The notes beneath the pieces were generated by a model. It searched no databases, was not told the DNA's origin, and saw only the letters and a list, made by a program, of their open reading frames with translations. From Candidatus Omnitrophota bacterium (GTDB lineage Bacteria; Omnitrophota; Gorgyraeia; Zapsychrales; Fredricksoniimonadaceae), in NCBI GenBank assembly GCA_028870995.1, contig JAGWOI010000009.1, forward strand, positions 7,085 through 71,084: 64,000 nt of DNA, read 5' to 3'. Positions within the stretch are counted from its first letter, which is position 1. Each line of letters begins with the position of its first letter. A program made the translations under genes and the position numbers. Shown one piece after another: positions 3,846 to 54,394 of the stretch.

Positions 3846-3922
3846 GGAATTGGACCATTTCCTTAACGTAAATTTATTATTGGAAACGGTCCAAGGGAAA
3901 TAGCAATCTTAAGGAAAATATT

Positions 3923-4840: not shown

Positions 4841-4921
4841 AGGCCGATTTTGCTACTAAAAGATTAAGGAAATCGGCACTTCGAATCAATGTAAAAGTAG
4901 TGGAACTTTTGGAAGGAATCT
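4841..4921. repeat. Copy 2 of the ~85-bp intergenic hairpin + ribosome-binding-site repeat; fills the rplE-rpsZ spacer
   Basis: AGGCCGATTTTGCTACTAAAAGATTAAGGAAATCGGCAC...GTGGAACTTTTGGAAGGAATCT then ATG. Confidence 0.85.
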
Positions 4922-5107
4922 ATGGCAAGAAAATCATTGGTCAACAAAGCTCTGGAACCCCCTAAATTTTCCGTGCGCCAGCACAACCGCTGCGGTTTGT
5001 GCGGCCGCCCCCGCGGTTACATGCGCCGTTTCGGCATTTGCCGTATCTGTTTTAGGGAACTCTCCTGGAAGGGTGAAATTCCAGGCGTGAAAAAAGCAAG
5101 CTGGTAA
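4922..5107 (+). CDS. rpsZ: 30S ribosomal protein S14, type Z (zinc-ribbon)
   Basis: 61 aa. [61 protein letters not shown] with CxxC...CxxC. Confidence 0.95.
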
Positions 5108-13993: not shown

Positions 13994-14023
13994 GCCGCCG
14001 CTTGCGTTAACAAGCAATTCCAG

Positions 14024-14052
14024 CCCCGTCTGAACAAGACGGGGCTTTTTTA
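14024..14052 (+). terminator. Rho-independent terminator after rplQ
   Basis: Hairpin CCCCGTCTGAACAAGACGGGG followed by TTTTTTATT. Confidence 0.8.
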
Positions 14053-14066
14053 TTGCCCTTTTCTCG

Positions 14067-14123
14067 TTGGACCGTTTCCGCGTCAGCCCTTGCTGCTATT
14101 GAGGTTATGATAGAAGTGTCCCC
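14067..14123. repeat. 57-bp bipartite motif TTGGACCGTTTC-N24-GGTTATGATAGAAGTGTCCCC; a second copy lies at 38974-39030
   Basis: Both flanking blocks match block-for-block at the two loci (39 of 41 positions identical) and the 24-nt spacing is the same. Both copies sit just 3' of a conserved gene at the edge of AT-rich DNA. Confidence 0.7.
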
Positions 14124-14129
14124 TTGCCT

Positions 14130-14294
14130 GGTTAAGCCGGTATTGCTCCCGAAACGGGGATATTTTCGCCGTCCGCTACGCTTTACGGCTCGGTTTCTAT
14201 CGCGATAAGGCATACGCGGAAACCTCGCCGTAAAACCTTGCGGACATTTGGCGAAAAATCCCTGAATGTTTCGTTCCGCAATACCGGCTTAACC
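14130..14294. repeat. Giant imperfect palindrome, family 1, copy 1 (165 bp)
   Basis: Terminal arms are GGTTAAGCCGGTATTGC / GCAATACCGGCTTAACC. The core GAAACGGGGATATTTTCGCCGTCCGCTACG...CGCGGAAACCTCGCCGTAAAACCTTGCGGACATTTGGCGAAAAATCCCTGAATGTTTC is shared with the copies at 25634-25810 and 26635-26802. Confidence 0.9.
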
Positions 14295-14313: not shown

Positions 14314-14343
14314 TTAGCATATGCAAATCATTCTGGTATAATT
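14314..14343 (+). promoter_or_regulatory. Near-consensus sigma70 promoter with extended -10: TTAGCA, 17-nt spacer ending TGG, then TATAAT
   Basis: -35 TTAGCA (14314-14319), 17-nt spacer, TGn extension, -10 TATAAT (14338-14343). This lies 15 nt upstream of the island's first ORF. Confidence 0.7.
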
Positions 14344-14357
14344 AGAAATTCCTAAAT

Positions 14358-15221: not shown

Positions 15222-15632
15222 ATGAAGAATAAATCAAGAAAGTCAGGGGAGGATTTTAACCATTGGAACCAGCAGAAGCAAAAGACGCATTTCGACAAGC
15301 AAAGGCCTTTTTTCCATGAACAGGAAGTATGGTTTTGTGCGCTGGGAGTTAATATTGGTTTTGAACAAGATGGCCGGGGCAATGGATTCTTACGACCGGT
15401 TCTGATCCTAAAGAAATTTAATAACGAAATATTCTGGGCTTTGCCCATGACTAAAAATTTAAAGCAAGGGACGTATTACGCTGCCATTTCATTTAGAAAA
15501 AATACCCAAAGCACCTTAATTCTTTCTCAAATTCGCTTAGTTGATGCAAAAAGACTGGTATATAAAGCAGGAGCTGTTAAACAGCAGGATTTTGAATCGA
15601 TTAAAGAGAGGGTTAGGCAAATACTTGCCTAA
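15222..15632 (+). CDS. PemK/MazF-family endoribonuclease toxin-like protein (divergent, with an N-terminal extension); no cognate antitoxin ORF detected
   Basis: ...QEVWFCALGVNIGFEQDGRGNGFLRPVLILKKFNNEIFWALPMT...LILSQIRLVDAKRLVYKAGAVKQQDFESIKERV. This parallels the MazF pattern of a G-rich loop, RPxLIL, then ADQVKSID-KRL...G.L....I. Confidence 0.6.
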   Translation: MKNKSRKSGEDFNHWNQQKQKTHFDKQRPFFHEQEVWFCALGVNIGFEQDGRGNGFLRPVLILKKFNNEIFWALPMTKNLKQGTYYAAISFRKNTQSTLILSQIRLVDAKRLVYKAGAVKQQDFESIKERVRQILA

Positions 15633-16459: not shown

Positions 16460-16506
16460 GCCCTGTCCAGATATTCTTATATTAATTTTATATAATATGG
16501 TGGTCT

Positions 16507-17955
<1,449 letters not shown>

Positions 17956-25633: not shown

Positions 25634-25810
25634 GCGTATAGGTTAACCGGTATTGCTTCAGAAACGGGGATATTTTTGCCGTCCGCTACGGTTTACAGCT
25701 CGGCTGCTATCGCGATAAGGCATTCGCGGCAGCCTCGCTGTAAAGCCTTGCGGACATTTGGCAAAAAATCTCTGATCGTTTCTGAAGCAATACCGGCTTA
25801 ACCTATACGC
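25634..25810. repeat. Giant imperfect palindrome, family 1, copy 2 (177 bp)
   Basis: Arms are GCGTATAGGTTAACCGGTATTGCTTCAGAAACG / CGTTTCTGAAGCAATACCGGCTTAACCTATACGC. The core is shared with copies 1 and 3, with compensatory changes between the arms. Confidence 0.9.
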
Positions 25811-25837: not shown

Positions 25838-26596
25838 ATGGTTTACGAACTTAATAGATTCGTGAGTAACGACAAGTATGTTGACAAAAAAGACATTATT
25901 GACGCAATACGTAAAACCGCAAAACAGAACGGCGATAGCCCTTTAGGCGTCGGTAGATTCGAAAAAGAGACAGGAATAAAAAGTTATGATTGGGGAAAAT
26001 ATTGGGCACGGTTTGGGGATGCACAAAAGGAGGCTGGTTTTAAGTCAAATCAGTTACAAATTGCCTATACTGACGAGTTTATTATTGAGAAGATAATTGG
26101 TGTGATTTGTAAGCTTGATAAATTTCCAACCCTACGCGAAATGGTGGTAGAACATCATAACGATTCTGAGTTTCCGAGTTATAGTGTTTTTAGACGCTTA
26201 GGTACGAGGGAACAAATTGTAAATAAAGTAATGGAATATTGTAAGGATAAGAGTGCTTACGATGATATTGTTACTCTTTGTGGATCAATTCTTGGGAGTT
26301 CCAAAGATGAAAAGGTTATGGATGAGTCTAACATTCAGATTGGAGAAGTATACCTTTTCAAGTCGTGTCGGTATTATAAAATTGGAAAAACATATGACAC
26401 CGTGAGGCGGGGCAGTGAACTTAGGATTCAATTACCAGAAAAATGCGAATTAATACATTCTATTAAGACTGATGATCCAAGTGGTATCGAAGCTTATTGG
26501 CATAAACGATTTGAGACGAAAAGGATGAATGGTGAGTGGTTTGACTTAAGCTTTGCTGAAGTAAAGGCATTTAAGCTTTGGAGACGTATAAATTAA
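25838..26596 (+). CDS. Free-standing homing-endonuclease-like protein: two N-terminal HNH/homing-endonuclease-associated repeats plus a C-terminal T5orf172/GIY-YIG-like nuclease domain
   Basis: C-terminus is GEVYLFKSCRYYKIGKTYDTVRRGSEL...LIHSIKTDDPSGIEAYWHKRFETKRMNGEWFDL (the GIY..YIG..R..E..N pattern of T5orf172). N-terminus has two repeats of ...P..FGxxxxA..EAGF type (SPLGVGRFEKETGIKSYDWGKYWARFGDAQKEAGF). AT-rich. Confidence 0.7.
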   Translation: MVYELNRFVSNDKYVDKKDIIDAIRKTAKQNGDSPLGVGRFEKETGIKSYDWGKYWARFGDAQKEAGFKSNQLQIAYTDEFIIEKIIGVICKLDKFPTLREMVVEHHNDSEFPSYSVFRRLGTREQIVNKVMEYCKDKSAYDDIVTLCGSILGSSKDEKVMDESNIQIGEVYLFKSCRYYKIGKTYDTVRRGSELRIQLPEKCELIHSIKTDDPSGIEAYWHKRFETKRMNGEWFDLSFAEVKAFKLWRRIN

Positions 26597-26634
26597 GATG
26601 TATTTATGGCAGGGAGCAGATATGTGCATGGAAA

Positions 26635-26802
26635 GGATGGATAGGTAGGATGTTTTCAGAACGGGGATATTTCCGCCGTCCGCTACGGTTTATGGCTCGG
26701 TTTCTATCGCAATAAAGCATACGCGGAAACCTCGCCATAAAACCTTGCGGACATTTGGCGGAAAATCCCTGAATATTCTGAAAACATCCTACCTATCCAT
26801 CC
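26635..26802. repeat. Giant imperfect palindrome, family 1, copy 3 (168 bp)
   Basis: Arms are GGATGGATAGGTAGGATGTTTTCAGAA / TTCTGAAAACATCCTACCTATCCATCC. The core is conserved while the outer arms differ from copies 1 and 2 yet remain perfectly self-complementary. Confidence 0.9.
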
Positions 26803-37913: not shown

Positions 37914-38954
37914 ATGGCTGTTGAAACTATTAAATGGATCAATGGTGCGGCCCGTATCATTGATCAAACCAAACTTCCCCGTCAATTTAAATACCTCTAT
38001 TGCCGCGACGTCAAAACCATGTGGCAGGCCATCAAGCGCCTGCAGGTGCGCGGCGCGCCAGCCATCGGTGTTGCTGCCGCCTTTGGCGTTTTGTTAGGCA
38101 TTCAGAAATTCAAGGGTTCGGATAAAAGGAAGTTCCTGCAATTGTTCCATGAAACCTGTGATTATTTGAGCACATCCCGCCCGACGGCGGTGAATCTTTT
38201 CAACATGCTCAATGAAATGCGTGCCGTCGTGACGCATAATCCTCAGGCCGATGTGGCCACCTTAAAAAAGGCCCTGTTCCTGCAGGCCATGACCATTTTT
38301 GAGGCGGACCGCGAGGTCTGCCGGCAAATGGGGGAGCACGGTGCCAAACTGATCAAGAACGGCATGCGCTGTTTGACGGTTTGCAATGCCGGGGCCCTGG
38401 CTACTGTTGATTACGGCACGGCTCTAGGCGTTTTTTACAGTGCCAAGGGGCGGGGCAAGAAATTCAGCGTCTATTCCTGCGAGACCCGTCCCTTATTGCA
38501 GGGGGCAAGGCTCACCTGTTGGGAACTGCTGCAGCAGAAGATCGATACCACGCTTATCTGCGACAATATGGCTGCGACCCTGATGGCGCAGGGGAAGGTG
38601 GACATTATTTTTACCGGTGCTGACCGCATCGCCTCCAACGGGGATGCCGCCAACAAGATCGGCACCTACATGCTGGCGGTCCTGGCCCGGCATCACGGCA
38701 TTCCTTTTTATGTGGTGGCGCCCAGCACTACCTTTGATTTGAAGATAAAGTCCGGCAGGCAGATCCCCATCGAAGAGCGGCACAGTGATGAAGTCACGCA
38801 TTTTGCGGGAGTGCCCACAGCTCCCAAGGGCGTTAAAGTCTATAATCCGGCCTTTGACGTGACGCCGGCTAAGCTCATTGCCGGCATCGTGACCGAACAC
38901 GGCATCATCCGAGCGCCTTTTGTCAAAAATATCAAACGTCTTCTCTTAAATTAG
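37914..38954 (+). CDS. mtnA: S-methyl-5-thioribose-1-phosphate isomerase (eIF-2B alpha/beta/delta family)
   Basis: 346 aa. RGAPAIGVAAAFGVLLG...CNAGALATVDYGTALGV...GADRIASNGDAANKIGTY. Confidence 0.85.
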   Translation: MAVETIKWINGAARIIDQTKLPRQFKYLYCRDVKTMWQAIKRLQVRGAPAIGVAAAFGVLLGIQKFKGSDKRKFLQLFHETCDYLSTSRPTAVNLFNMLNEMRAVVTHNPQADVATLKKALFLQAMTIFEADREVCRQMGEHGAKLIKNGMRCLTVCNAGALATVDYGTALGVFYSAKGRGKKFSVYSCETRPLLQGARLTCWELLQQKIDTTLICDNMAATLMAQGKVDIIFTGADRIASNGDAANKIGTYMLAVLARHHGIPFYVVAPSTTFDLKIKSGRQIPIEERHSDEVTHFAGVPTAPKGVKVYNPAFDVTPAKLIAGIVTEHGIIRAPFVKNIKRLLLN

Positions 38955-38985
38955 TTGGACCGTTTCAAATTAGTTGGACCGTTTC
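38948..38985. repeat. Perfect tandem duplication, 2 x 19 bp (AAATTAGTTGGACCGTTTC), which includes the mtnA stop codon
   Basis: 38948-38966 and 38967-38985 are identical. The second unit begins the 57-bp motif (38974-39030) that is shared with 14067-14123. Confidence 0.85.
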
Positions 38986-39285
38986 TACGGGAACCTATGA
39001 GACTCTTAGGGTTATGGCAGAAGTGTCCCCAAAACTTGAAGGGAATGGACCAAGTAGAGTCAATTCACCTTCTCCCAAGGGTTTCATATAATTTCCCAAT
39101 TCGATATCACAGTTTGTGATCTTAAGTCAGGGTGGTTCGCGCAAACCGCGACAAAAAGATTATCTCCATATTCCAGGCCATTAAGGCCTTATTGTCCAAC
39201 AAAGAAGTGAAATCGAGAAAACGGGCGCCTTTGGGATTTCAAATACCGAAGGGAATTAAGTAGCTGTTTTATTCTTCTCTTGTAG

Positions 39286-39300
39286 TATAATCATCGCATG
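39286..39300 (+). promoter_or_regulatory. -10 element TATAAT only 6 nt upstream of the thiL ATG; implies a leaderless transcript
   Basis: TGTAGTATAATCATCGCATG. There is no Shine-Dalgarno sequence between the -10 element and the ATG. Confidence 0.45.
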
Positions 39301-40606: not shown

Positions 40607-41262
40607 GCTGCGATGAGAAGGTCCTGCGTTACCGCAATATCAAGACCGCCCTGGTGCTGGAAAACTCCATGCTGCCGGCGATGGACAAACTTTTGGACAG
40701 TGCCGGAATCAAATTTAACCAGATTGACGGCTTTGCCATCGCCTTAGGCCCGGGGTCTTTCACCAGCCTGCGGGTGGGGCTCTCCACGGTGAAAGCCTTC
40801 TGTCTGGCCACAGGCAAACATGTGATCGGCATCCCGACCTTGGATATTATCGCCCAAGGCGTTGCCGGCCGGTATGCCTGCGATCAGATCTGTGTCATCA
40901 GCGATGCCCGCCGCCAGAAAGTTTATGCCTGCCTTTACGGGGCCGACGGCCGCCGGCAAAGCGATTATTTATTGACCTCCTTGAGTGATATTTTGGATAA
41001 GGTGAAAGACGCCACCCTTTTTGTCGGCGATGCCGTGGGGCTTTACCGCAAGGAGATCCAGGGGGCCTACCGGAAATGCAGCTTGGATGCTTGCCAATGC
41101 CTTTTTGCTGACGAAAAATGGTGGCATCCTCAAGCCAAGGTGATGGCGGGCCTCGCTTACAGGCGTTTTTCCGGTAAGCACTATGACCAAGCGGAAAAGC
41201 TTGTGCCGATTTATTTGTACGCGCAGGATTGCCAGGTTTCCGTGCATGAAGCAAAAACGTAA
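40555..41262 (+). CDS. tsaB: tRNA threonylcarbamoyladenosine biosynthesis protein TsaB (inactive Kae1/YgjD paralogue)
   Basis: MYFLSFETSTKIFSLAL...GFAIALGPGSFTSLRVGLSTVKAF. Confidence 0.88.
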   Translation: MYFLSFETSTKIFSLALSCDEKVLRYRNIKTALVLENSMLPAMDKLLDSAGIKFNQIDGFAIALGPGSFTSLRVGLSTVKAFCLATGKHVIGIPTLDIIAQGVAGRYACDQICVISDARRQKVYACLYGADGRRQSDYLLTSLSDILDKVKDATLFVGDAVGLYRKEIQGAYRKCSLDACQCLFADEKWWHPQAKVMAGLAYRRFSGKHYDQAEKLVPIYLYAQDCQVSVHEAKT

Positions 41263-43558
41263 GAAGATCCCCCAACAGCCTAAACCTAAGTTCAGCGGTC
41301 CCCTAAGCCCTGCTGTTGCTGCCAGGCCGTTAAATAAATTTTTTGTGTTCTTATCCTGCCTGCTCATTGCGGCCTTGGGGCTGGTAATTTATTCCAATAC
41401 CTTCCGGTCACCGTTTCATTTTGATGACAATCTCTTCATAACCAATAACTTGTCCATAAGGAATATCCGGGATTTGGCGGCCATCTGGGCGTACCTGCCT
41501 TGCCGTTTTATTCTTTACCTTTCCTTTGCCTTGAATTATCACTTCAGCCACTTTCATGTTGCAGCTTATCATTTTTTTAACATTGCCGTTCATTTGACTT
41601 CCGCGCTGCTGGTCGCCTGGCTTGTGCTTTTGACGCTTGCAACACCGGTGATGAAGGAAAATGAGATCAGCCGGCATGCCGGCATAATTGCGCTCTTGTC
41701 CGGGCTGGTATTTGTCAGCCATCCGCTCCAAACCGAGGCAGTGACCTACATTCTGCAGCGCGCCGCATCCCTGGCGGCTTTGTTTTATTTGGCGTCCCTG
41801 TGTTTCTATATCAAGGCCAGGTCCCTGCAGGAAGCCCGATCGGCAGGGGCTAGGTTCTGTTATGCGGCTTCCTGGGTGGCGGCCATCCTGGCCATGTTCA
41901 CCAAGGAAAATACCATTACCCTGCCGTTGATGGTGCTGCTTTATGAGGTATGCTTTTTCAGGACAGATCGCGGCCTTAAGCTCCGCTACCTGCTGGGATT
42001 TTTACCGGCCCTTCTTATCATTCCTTTGACCATGTTGCTGACCAAGGCCGGGCATGCCGTCAGCACCCATGAAATGAAAATGGCGCTGGAAGGCGCCACG
42101 CCGATTAGCCCGTCGCAATATCTTTTCACTGAATTCAGGGTGATGGTCACCTATATCCGGCTCCTGTTTCTTCCTATCCATCAGAATGTGGACTACGACT
42201 ATCCTGTCTTCAAAAGTTTTTTTGAAGGTCCGGTGGTCTTTGGCTTTTTATTTTTGACGGCCGTCCTTGGGACAGCCGTACGTCTTTTTTCCAAATACAG
42301 GTTGATTGCGTTCTCGGTCTTCTGGTTCTTCCTGACGCTTTTGCCGGAATCGAGCATTTTCCCCATCCAGGACGTCATTTTCGAGCACAGGCTTTATTTG
42401 CCGATGGCCGGATTCAGCATGTTCCTGGCCGGCGGCTTGTATTATCTCCTGGGTCGGAAATCGATCAAAATGATGGTCGGCATACTGCTGGTGATCATAA
42501 CTCTTAATTCTGTTTTGACCTATCAAAGGAACAAAATTTGGAGAGACGACATTACGTTTTGGTCTGATGCCCTTAGCAAATCGCCCCATAAGGCTAGGCC
42601 TTATAACAATCTCGGCAAGGTCTATCTGGACCAGGGCCATGCAAAGAAAGCTCTGCCATATTTCAACAAAGCCATTGAATTGAATCCGTATGACGGCCAG
42701 GCATATTATAATCGCGGTCTTATTTTTAACGGCGAGGGGCATTATGACCGTGCTGAGGCGGATTTCGACAGGGCCATTGCCATCGATCCGATCTCGTGGG
42801 AAGCGTATAATGACCGGGGGATCTCCTACATTAATCAAGGGCGTTTGGACGAGGCCATGGCCGACCTTAATAAATCCATCGGGATCCATCCGGACGCCAG
42901 GAGTTACTATAACCGGGGGATCATATTTGACAAGAAGGGACGATTGAACCGGGCCATTGAGGATTTCAATAAAGCCATTGTGCTTAAAGCTGACTATCCC
43001 CAAGCCTACCTCAATCGCGGCCGTGATTACAGCCGCCGGCAGGATTTCAAGCGGGCCATTCTTGATTTCAAGCAAGCCATTAAGCTCAAGGCCGACTATC
43101 CCTTGGCCTATAATAATTTGGGCCTTATCTATCAGTATAAGGGCGATTACAGTCAGGCCATTCTGGATTTCGGCAGGGCCATCGCTCTTAAAAGGGATTA
43201 TGCCGAAGCTTATAATAACCGTGGATTTGCCAATGAAGACAAAGGGCATTACAATCAGGCTATTTCAGATTATAATAAAGCCGTTGAACTTGATCCCAAG
43301 GATGCCGAAGCTTATGCCAATCGCGGCAGGGTCTATGGCAGGAAGAAAAATTTCAGCCGGGCCATTGAGGATTTTAATAAGGCCATTGGACTTGCCCCTA
43401 AATTTACGCAGGCCTATATCAACCGGTCCGTGGCTTTTTATTTCATGAAGGACTACGCCCAGGCCTGGAGGGACGTGCATCAAGCAGAAGACTTAGGCGG
43501 CCGTCTTGATCCCCAATTTATCGCCGGCCTGGAAGGTGCTTCTGGAAGAGATCATTAA
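41246..43558 (+). CDS. TMTC-like protein: N-terminal multi-pass membrane domain (DUF1736/PMT-like, FHFDD motif) fused to about 12 C-terminal TPR repeats
   Basis: YSNTFRSPFHFDDNLFITNN, then about 10 TM helices, then repeated AxxxYNxGxxYxxxGxYxxAIxDFxKAIxL TPR units. Start is at the ATG at 41246; the track's 41183 start overlaps tsaB. Confidence 0.8.
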   Translation: MKQKRKKIPQQPKPKFSGPLSPAVAARPLNKFFVFLSCLLIAALGLVIYSNTFRSPFHFDDNLFITNNLSIRNIRDLAAIWAYLPCRFILYLSFALNYHFSHFHVAAYHFFNIAVHLTSALLVAWLVLLTLATPVMKENEISRHAGIIALLSGLVFVSHPLQTEAVTYILQRAASLAALFYLASLCFYIKARSLQEARSAGARFCYAASWVAAILAMFTKENTITLPLMVLLYEVCFFRTDRGLKLRYLLGFLPALLIIPLTMLLTKAGHAVSTHEMKMALEGATPISPSQYLFTEFRVMVTYIRLLFLPIHQNVDYDYPVFKSFFEGPVVFGFLFLTAVLGTAVRLFSKYRLIAFSVFWFFLTLLPESSIFPIQDVIFEHRLYLPMAGFSMFLAGGLYYLLGRKSIKMMVGILLVIITLNSVLTYQRNKIWRDDITFWSDALSKSPHKARPYNNLGKVYLDQGHAKKALPYFNKAIELNPYDGQAYYNRGLIFNGEGHYDRAEADFDRAIAIDPISWEAYNDRGISYINQGRLDEAMADLNKSIGIHPDARSYYNRGIIFDKKGRLNRAIEDFNKAIVLKADYPQAYLNRGRDYSRRQDFKRAILDFKQAIKLKADYPLAYNNLGLIYQYKGDYSQAILDFGRAIALKRDYAEAYNNRGFANEDKGHYNQAISDYNKAVELDPKDAEAYANRGRVYGRKKNFSRAIEDFNKAIGLAPKFTQAYINRSVAFYFMKDYAQAWRDVHQAEDLGGRLDPQFIAGLEGASGRDH

Positions 43559-53456: not shown

Positions 53457-54335
53457 ATGCATCCCGTTTTTGCCATCATCGACATTCTTCTTCTTTTTAC
53501 CTTATGTTGGTTCTTCCTGCAAAATATCCGGCTCAACCGCGAACTTAAAGAGAAAAACAGGGAATTGGAAGCTGCCATCAAGGAGCTTAAGGATGCCCAG
53601 GTCAAATTGATGGACAGCGGCAAGAAAGGCGCCGTCGCCGCCCTTAGCGCCGGTCTTTTGCATCAGATCAGTCAGCCCATCACTGCCATTCATGGGTTTT
53701 TGCGCTTCATGAAAAAGGAAATGGACATCAATTCCCCTTTTTACAAGCCGGTCTGCGTCATGGATGAGCAGTCTTTTTATATCAAGGACATGCTGGCCAA
53801 TTTGATGGAGCTGATCCGCCACCGTAAGATCCAGAAAGCGCCGATCAACATCAATACGGTGATCCATCGCGCCATGAATTTGCTTTTGGACGAACTGCGT
53901 ATCCGCCGTGTCGGTTGGGACATGCAGTTGGAAGAGAAGATACCCATGGTTTACGGGGATGCCCTGCATTTGCAGCAGGTCTTCATGAACCTTGTGGTCA
54001 ATGCCATGGAAGCTTTGAGCGAATTGCCTCACGGGCAGGCGCGCGCCCTAATCGTCGCTTCCGCCTACGGGGCCGCCCGCCAGGAAGCGGTCATTACCTT
54101 CAAGGACAACGGCCCGGGCATCGACAGCCAGCACCAATCCAAGATTTTCGATCCATTCTTCTCAACCAAGACGCAGGGGTCGGGCATAGGATTGGCCCTG
54201 TGCCACGATCTGATCAACGAGCACGGCGGCCATATCAGCGTCCAGAGCGGCAAGGAGGGGACCATCTTTACGGTGACATTGCCATGCATGAGGTCCGGCA
54301 AAATCCAACAGGCCGATCTTGCTACTAATAATTAA
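53457..54335 (+). CDS. Sensor histidine kinase (one N-terminal TM helix, HisKA plus HATPase_c). The last 8 codons are contributed by the 85-bp repeat
   Basis: H-box AALSAGLLHQISQPITAIHGF, N-box LQQVFMNLVVNAMEA, G-boxes DNGPGI and GSGIGLAL. Confidence 0.85.
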   Translation: MHPVFAIIDILLLFTLCWFFLQNIRLNRELKEKNRELEAAIKELKDAQVKLMDSGKKGAVAALSAGLLHQISQPITAIHGFLRFMKKEMDINSPFYKPVCVMDEQSFYIKDMLANLMELIRHRKIQKAPININTVIHRAMNLLLDELRIRRVGWDMQLEEKIPMVYGDALHLQQVFMNLVVNAMEALSELPHGQARALIVASAYGAARQEAVITFKDNGPGIDSQHQSKIFDPFFSTKTQGSGIGLALCHDLINEHGGHISVQSGKEGTIFTVTLPCMRSGKIQQADLATNN

Positions 54336-54394
54336 GGAAATCGGCACCTTGAATCAGTGGAAAAGCTAGTGGAATTTATGGAGGGAGGCTGGAC
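54310..54394. repeat. Copy 3 of the ~85-bp intergenic hairpin + ribosome-binding-site repeat (overlaps the histidine-kinase 3' end and supplies the response-regulator ribosome-binding site)
   Basis: AGGCCGATCTTGCTACTAATAATTAAGGAAATCGGCACCTTGAATCAGTGGAAAAGCTAGTGGAATTTATGGAGGGAGG. Confidence 0.85.

Follow-up and report, generated by a model that had tools for sequence, protein, structure and literature searches.

A 57-bp bipartite motif at gene junctions of an Omnitrophota genome as a candidate unit of a rare palindromic insertion element

A 57-bp bipartite motif occurs twice in a 64,000-nt stretch of a Candidatus Omnitrophota genome (GenBank assembly GCA_028870995.1, contig JAGWOI010000009.1, positions 7,085 to 71,084; hereafter the window), once downstream of rplQ and once between mtnA and thiL. 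With moderate confidence, we interpret it as the unit of a low-copy, non-autonomous, non-coding palindromic insertion element, resembling REP/BIME elements or miniature inverted-repeat transposable elements (MITEs) and belonging to one Omnitrophota clade. A short palindromic insertion element is favoured because the motif is repeated at unrelated loci, its copies point to common descent, its ends form a dyad and also occur as an inverted pair, and it is absent from orthologous sites in relatives. Omnitrophota are uncultured bacteria with compact genomes, and intergenic insertion elements that are short and palindromic are common among bacteria; a full-text literature search found no description of repeats, MITEs or mobile-element content in Omnitrophota.

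Two blocks at a fixed distance

The first-pass annotation of the window, made from the DNA letters without database searches, had reported a bipartite motif with identical 24-nt spacing at two sites, and a pattern search bore this out. The pattern TTGGACCGTTTC-N24-GGTTATGNNAGAAGTGTCCCC, with up to three mismatches allowed, has exactly two matches in the window, both on the + strand, and was matched in 0 of 100 dinucleotide shuffles; block 2 searched alone returned the same two sites and no others. The reported agreement of 39 of 41 flanking positions was wrong: the blocks comprise 12 + 21 = 33 positions, 31 of them identical, and the 24-nt spacers agree at 11 of 24. The blocks are better conserved than the spacer (Fisher p = 1e-4), in a comparison that is not shaped by the search patterns. 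The exact block-1 12-mer TTGGACCGTTTC occurs four times in the 64 kb, against 0.008 expected, and the fourth of these, on the - strand, forms a hairpin with TTGGACCATTTC between rplN and rplX. The sites in the window are as follows.

14067..14123, + strand: unit W1, consisting of block 1 TTGGACCGTTTC, a 24-nt spacer and block 2 GGTTATGATAGAAGTGTCCCC (nhmmer E = 1e-14)
38974..39030, + strand: unit W2, consisting of block 1 (38974-38985), spacer (38986-39009) and block 2 GGTTATGGCAGAAGTGTCCCC (39010-39030) (nhmmer E = 1e-16)
3850..3894, no strand assigned: mini palindrome TTGGACCATTTCC-N19-GGAAACGGTCCAA, both arms being block-1 sequence, inside a 76-nt rplN-rplX insertion

W1 lies where it had been placed, between the rplQ terminator (14022-14046) and the first of three giant hairpins (14130-14294). 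A weaker resemblance said to exist near 26606 dissolved on inspection, as there is no match to TTATGGCAGRAG even with one mismatch and what remains is a 10-mer match at chance level.

Copies outside the window

A scan of 185,579 species-representative genomes with the block-2 pattern gave three matches: L002 and L003, both in Omnitrophota metagenome-assembled genomes (MAGs), and L004 in a Pacificispira sp. In L002 and L003 the sequence GACCG(T/C)TTC stands exactly 24 nt upstream of block 2, with a chance of 8e-6 per site. A metagenome scan, in which a spacer of 21-27 nt was allowed and three putative base pairs were left free, returned one contig, L005, and here too the spacer is 24 nt. The whole-collection scans, in which the window's own genome did not come up, gave only these three further loci (L002, L003 and L005), each at an unrelated gene junction; their units are called L2, L3, and L5a and L5b, respectively. 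Scanning of viral contigs and BLAST searches of plasmids and phages produced no motif matches, and a six-copy profile search of ~314 kb of fetched loci, nearly all from Omnitrophota but with the 8-kb L004 from outside the phylum, found no further copies. The motif family is real, rare and confined to part of the phylum Omnitrophota.

The alphaproteobacterial L004 was considered as a member of the family and treated as a chance match, because it has block 2 without block 1 and about four chance matches are expected. Its sequence GGTTATGCGAGAAGTGTCCCC (1855-1886) lies in an intergenic repeat region with GGACC 3 nt upstream, which would give the same bulged stem without the spacer, probably by chance.

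Anatomy of the unit

Each unit opens with the left end (T)T-R-GACCGYTTC, followed by 24 bp of diverged spacer, the conserved core GGTTATG-RY-A and, as the right end, GAAGTGTCC(CC). The right end repeats the left one imperfectly and in inverted orientation, and a single unit is an imperfect palindrome in which GACCGTTTC faces GAAGTGTC across a 34-nt centre containing the conserved GGTTATG-RY-A. The spacer is 24 bp long in 6/6 units, and the blocks start at 0, 33 and 42 bp, that is, about three and four helical turns apart from the first. Although diverged, the spacer sequences share a mean identity of 38% compared to 25% for shuffles, a value reached by 0 of 5000 shuffles, and this residual homology indicates that the units are copies of one ancestor and not convergent binding sites.

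Three forms of the unit were found: the single unit (W1, W2, L2 and L3), a head-to-head pair (L005) and the short form with perfect arms (rplN-rplX). In L005 a canonical unit is followed, after 15 nt, by an inverted degenerate unit (nhmmer E = 2e-12), and the pair folds into a 12-bp outer and a ~13-bp inner stem (-35.8 kcal/mol, z = -2.5); the RNA fold of the rplN-rplX mini palindrome reaches -15.7 kcal/mol (z = -2.4). Terminal inverted repeats, as used to recognize MITEs, are therefore present, being perfect in the rplN-rplX form and the L005 pair and imperfect in the single unit. In L003 the unit alone fills a ~55-nt gap between two genes, and the upstream open reading frame (ORF) continues across block 1 to a stop codon in the spacer.

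A degenerate right arm was also sought for W1, W2, L2 and L3; the only hint is a 14-nt match, GG(G/T)ATAATTAGAAA, and such an arm is treated as unproven. This sequence, followed by CTAA and ATG, is common to the inverted L005 unit (236-262) and to the promoter region of ORF 14358 (14334-14357, with the 14-nt match at 14334-14347), a coincidence reproduced in 8 of 2000 shuffles, and W1's own arm has no match at 14334-14347. W1 may once have had a right-hand partner from which giant hairpin 1 now parts it.

The internal dyad raises the question of whether the motif acts as RNA. In such a structured RNA, located in a 3' untranslated region or between two genes of an operon, block 1 would form a helix with the 3' half of block 2 that encloses an inner hairpin, and GGUUAUG-RY-A would serve as a functional loop. 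Pairing potential in register is indeed high (87% of cells, compared to 32-52% with the partner slid), the five canonical units all lie just downstream of a gene in its orientation, and a U-to-C change in L003 converts a U-G pair to C-G. Nevertheless, the covariation term of RNAalifold is unfavourable (+1.05), with L5a breaking a pair, and 392 of 500 shuffles attain the covariation score. The folding of single units is not superior to that of shuffles (z -0.3 to +1.0), a spacer of strictly fixed length is unusual for an RNA hairpin, and the motif is absent from the orthologous transcripts of relatives. The sole match to Rfam 15 at gathering threshold in the window was a tRNA, and E-value scans of both window loci gave nothing on the motif. 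Taken together, we see only a slim chance that the motif is an RNA element.

Coding and promoter functions were considered and rejected. A small ORF in which block 2 would read ATG-xxA-GAA-GTG-TCC-CC has invariant third codon positions, is followed by unrelated sequences and stops after 6 to 33 codons, while the frames of an ORF across the whole unit are broken by stops in several copies. Neither a sigma-70 nor a sigma-54 promoter fits the hexamers and their spacing, and the L002 copy lies between convergent genes.

The motif is inserted DNA

Relatives with 81-88% identical flanking proteins (84-88% for L006-L008 and L013-L018), obtained through protein look-ups, provided orthologous sites without the element at three junctions.

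mtnA-thiL: gap of 343 nt in the window; 23-nt overlap in L006 and L008, 10-nt gap in L007, 125-nt gap with an unrelated hairpin in L010-L012
rplN-rplX: gap of 77 nt in the window; 1-nt gap in L013, L014 and L015
bioA-mnmA: intergenic gap of ~130 nt with the paired unit in L005; 11- or 8-nt overlap in L016-L018

Because the relatives' genes overlap or abut without the motif, the motif itself must be inserted DNA, and the three insertions that can be dated are each only a few nucleotides away from the start codon of the downstream gene. At the fourth site, the rplQ terminator is kept in L015 but the motif is absent there, and W1 occupies the left edge of the rplQ-lysS gap, which ranges from ~300 nt to >5 kb among relatives. 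The suspicion that the motif is tied to inserted, variable DNA was thus well founded, given that the mtnA-thiL spacer is missing from the closest relatives and W1 borders a variable gap; rather than recurring at many loci with no such link, the motif is rare, and the three junctions that can be compared are lineage-specific insertions.

The hairpin at the mtnA-thiL junction of L011 (11058-11130; also in L010 and L012) is a different one, CATTGTATTTCCTTC...GAAGGAAACACAATG with an inner GCCGCATC/GATGCGGC stem, and this junction has been hit independently in a more distant relative.

These comparisons also bear on the view that the motif is a bipartite DNA-binding site for a host protein, whether an operator, a nucleoid-protein site or a recombinase site, acquired at junctions and kept for its function without being mobile itself. 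Its geometry would suit such a site well, as the 24-bp spacing is held strictly while the spacer sequence drifts, the blocks start near whole helical turns and the half-sites GACCGTTTC and GAAGTGTC are inverted. It is nonetheless unlikely: none of the orthologous junctions of close relatives carries the motif, residual spacer homology points to a single ancestor, and the flanking genes have no common function (rplQ; mtnA/thiL; bioA/mnmA; a 315-aa ORF in L003 and a 421-aa ORF in L002, both of unchecked function). A promoter function fails as well, since the L002 unit has convergent genes on its two sides, four of the five canonical units have no final T in the TATG-RY hexamer and the blocks are too far apart for sigma-70. 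The conserved regulatory box offered earlier as one explanation is disfavoured on the same grounds of absence at orthologous junctions, functionally unrelated neighbours and one copy between convergent genes.

The mtnA-thiL spacer and its 19-bp duplication

The largest of the inserts follows mtnA and has two features beyond the unit itself.

38948-38966 and 38967-38985, + strand: perfect tandem duplication of AAATTAGTTGGACCGTTTC, each copy consisting of the last 7 nt of mtnA, including TAG, and block 1
38955..39297, + strand: mtnA-thiL spacer of 343 bp, containing the extra block 1, W2 and a 267-bp GC-poor tract (39031-39297)

The stop codon TAG of mtnA, at 38952-38954, lies within the first 19-bp copy, and the coordinates therefore agree with the earlier description of a perfect tandem duplication that includes it. 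The GC-poor, ORF-poor character ascribed to the DNA after mtnA was likewise upheld: the GC content of the spacer is 0.41-0.43, compared to 0.54-0.60 in the flanking genes, and its ORFs are only mechanical, with at most 54 aa. The duplication and an identical 343-bp spacer, including an identical W2, recur in L001 (contig JAGWKV010000044 of GCA_028865175.1), a Candidatus Omnitrophota MAG with an identical MtnA protein that may not be independent of the window's source.

Homology of the window's mtnA to its relatives stops at ...AAAAATAT (about 38932), and when its tail was compared with the ancestral mtnA/thiL overlap, of which it might be a duplicated copy, the alignment was weak and gapped. 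The 19-bp repeat unit therefore consists of 7 nt of a lineage-specific mtnA tail and 12 nt of the element's own conserved end, and the duplication would most simply be a recent secondary slippage at the left end of the element. Tandem repeats adjoin block 1 at two loci, W2 and L002; the array in L002 (4714-4760, - strand) consists of about five AAAAAACTT units, abuts block 1 and parallels the 19-bp duplication at W2.

This composition is at odds with the model first proposed for the locus, in which cassettes carrying the giant hairpins use the motif for attachment or recognition and the 19-bp repeat is the footprint of an excision. Several observations agree with that model, in that W1 is an immediate neighbour of giant hairpin 1 and of the variable rplQ-lysS region, W2 stands at the head of a 343-bp insert specific to the lineage and block 1 is adjoined by tandem repeats at W2 and L002. 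With 12 bp of the element's own end in the repeat there is no bare target duplication, however, a complete unit follows directly after, and the whole spacer is extra DNA compared to relatives, which speaks against a footprint. As an attachment site the motif fares no better: no motif adjoins giant hairpins 2 and 3, which bracket a GIY-YIG-like gene, five of the six units (W2, L2, L3, L5a and L5b) have no giant hairpin, the unit stands alone in L003 and forms an inverted pair with nothing between the units in L005, and no recombinase is encoded nearby. We therefore consider the cassette model very improbable.

Upstream of thiL, a TATAAT at 39286-39291 lies 6 nt ahead of the ATG (39298), without a Shine-Dalgarno sequence, and a leaderless thiL start from TATAAT-6-ATG is plausible on this arrangement. 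The GC-poor tract also holds a 10/12 sigma-70-like site, TTCACC-17-TATAAT (39064-39092), followed by two small hairpins (ATCACA/TGTGAT and TCGCG/CGCGA) within 39064-39160, a combination that could specify a small transcript or a long thiL leader.

A model for the element and points that weigh against it

As short palindromic insertion elements, the units were probably moved in trans by an enzyme that would be encoded elsewhere and would read the two blocks at their fixed distance. Known copies lie only at gene junctions, and in a compact genome copies may have survived only there. The upstream ORF now has its stop at the inserted DNA or within it and the downstream gene retains its own start, with downstream expression probably restored by inserted signals, such as TATAAT-6-ATG for thiL and AAGGAA for rplX. 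When REP, ERIC and Correia elements are transcribed, their hairpins can act as terminators, processing sites or stabilisers of operon mRNA; the perfect and paired forms described here, if transcribed, would fold into stable hairpins and could act on operon mRNA in the same ways. Neighbouring junctions in the window contain further families of short hairpin insertions, and the genome thus tolerates such elements.

Several observations weigh against a mobile element. Comparison of filled sites with empty sites in relatives gave no clean target-site duplication at the three junctions; the repeat at L005 is limited to an ATG, and at rplN-rplX and mtnA-thiL the unit lies together with additional non-palindromic DNA. 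All five canonical units are oriented as the upstream gene, which could mean a function at the transcript level or in protein binding rather than mobility, and a simple inverted-repeat model does not account for the conserved core GGTTATG-RY-A. The known copies amount to six units at five loci and one short palindrome with block 1 only at a sixth locus, and the term multi-copy rests, for the window's own genome, on three sites in 64 kb. In L002, L003 and L005, the search patterns themselves account for part of the block conservation. The window ORFs that were scanned include no transposase, RAYT or integrase, and the genome, metagenome and viral scans revealed no autonomous copy and no paired matches flanking a gene, although such exact-pattern scans would miss diverged ends.

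A more specific proposal can be formulated, in which the units represent a previously undescribed class of mobile element in Omnitrophota that would home to the start/stop overlap of translationally coupled genes, split operons and supply a new stop codon, promoter or Shine-Dalgarno sequence. Its mobilising enzyme would recognize two blocks set rigidly 24 bp apart and might, for example, be an endonuclease of the GIY-YIG type resembling the product of the T5orf172-domain gene at 25838-26596. We regard this version as quite unlikely.

Neighbouring repeats and variable genes

The three giant hairpins, each of ~165 nt (14130-14294, 25641-25803 and 26635-26802), share a conserved core of 84-88% identity, and the outer stem of the third is entirely different yet perfectly complementary. 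Between hairpins 2 and 3 lies a T5orf172/MUG113 (GIY-YIG-like) gene of 252 aa (25838-26596) that includes a homing-endonuclease repeat; it is inserted between mlaE and an mlaF-like ABC ATPase gene. At the place of giant hairpin 1, L013 has a different long hairpin (16467-16625; TTAGCCTTTGGAGACAA...TTGTCTCCAAAGGCTAA) directly past the rplQ terminator.

A third repeat family of ~80 nt was found at about 1381-1460, 4843-4925 and 54308-54390. It forms the hairpin GGCCGATTT...AAATCGGC and ends with GGAAGGA just ahead of the start of the next gene. Two of its copies lie in the ribosomal-protein operon, where the gaps in L013 are only 16 nt (rpsS-rplV) and 7 nt (rplE-rpsN). Among larger differences, a 791-aa TPR-repeat gene (41183-43558) separates tsaB from alr, which are adjacent in L006, L008 and L010. 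The variable rplQ-lysS region contains a PemK/MazF-like toxin gene (15222-15632), and L013 has a RelE gene in the same gap.

Discussion

The window thus holds several families of short hairpin-type insertions at junctions that overlap or abut in close relatives, some of them within a ribosomal-protein operon. What is unusual about the present motif is its rigid bipartite spacing and the fact that overlapping gene junctions, among them ones in the ribosomal-protein operon, have been hit repeatedly. If the units are mobile elements, they show the uncoupling and rewiring of translationally coupled genes in a streamlined genome, and they would be usable as strain-level markers. The comparisons with relatives also remove support for reading the mtnA-thiL locus as an excision scar or attachment site.

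Of the known systems, the REP/BIME elements of Gammaproteobacteria, which are mobilised by the Y1 transposase RAYT, resemble the units in being short, imperfect, extragenic palindromes that typically lie just past stop codons and inside operons, and in existing both as single units and as inverted pairs whose two members differ slightly; the pair in L005 is reminiscent of a BIME. The unit described here is longer, however, with a 34-nt non-palindromic centre and a GGTTATG core, and its known copy number is very low. The conserved 5' GTAG of REP elements is also missing: the 5' flanks are GTTG, GTTG, TTAA, GGTA, CTTA and ATTA, and only L003 contains GTAG.

With bacterial MITEs such as Correia elements of Neisseria, ERIC/IRU and RUP/BOX, the units have in common that they are non-coding and lineage-specific, fall within the 50-150 bp range, have inverted termini and lie between genes or at their ends, and MITEs, too, can bring promoters or hairpins that alter operon expression. 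They differ in the lack of a clean target-site duplication, which in Correia elements is TA, and of any related insertion sequence found; moreover, most are single 57-bp units whose ends match imperfectly.

The attC sites of integrons are similar in length (~57 bp), in their position directly after an ORF and in its orientation, and in having conserved ends around a variable centre, and a folded unit would likewise have a bulged base. Yet the R'' (RYYYAAC) at the 5' end and the R' (GTTRRRY) at the 3' end are absent, every unit having GTGTCCCC as its 3' end; GTTGGAC is confined to the window copies, where it stands at the wrong (5') end. The flanking genes are core housekeeping genes and not cassettes, and no integrase accompanies them.

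Finally, Rickettsia palindromic elements share with the units that palindromes are tolerated in a compact genome and can join a reading frame, as in the upstream ORF of L003. Those elements are ~100-150 bp long and lie in frame inside genes, whereas the units described here have no sequence similarity to them and are located at the ends of genes.

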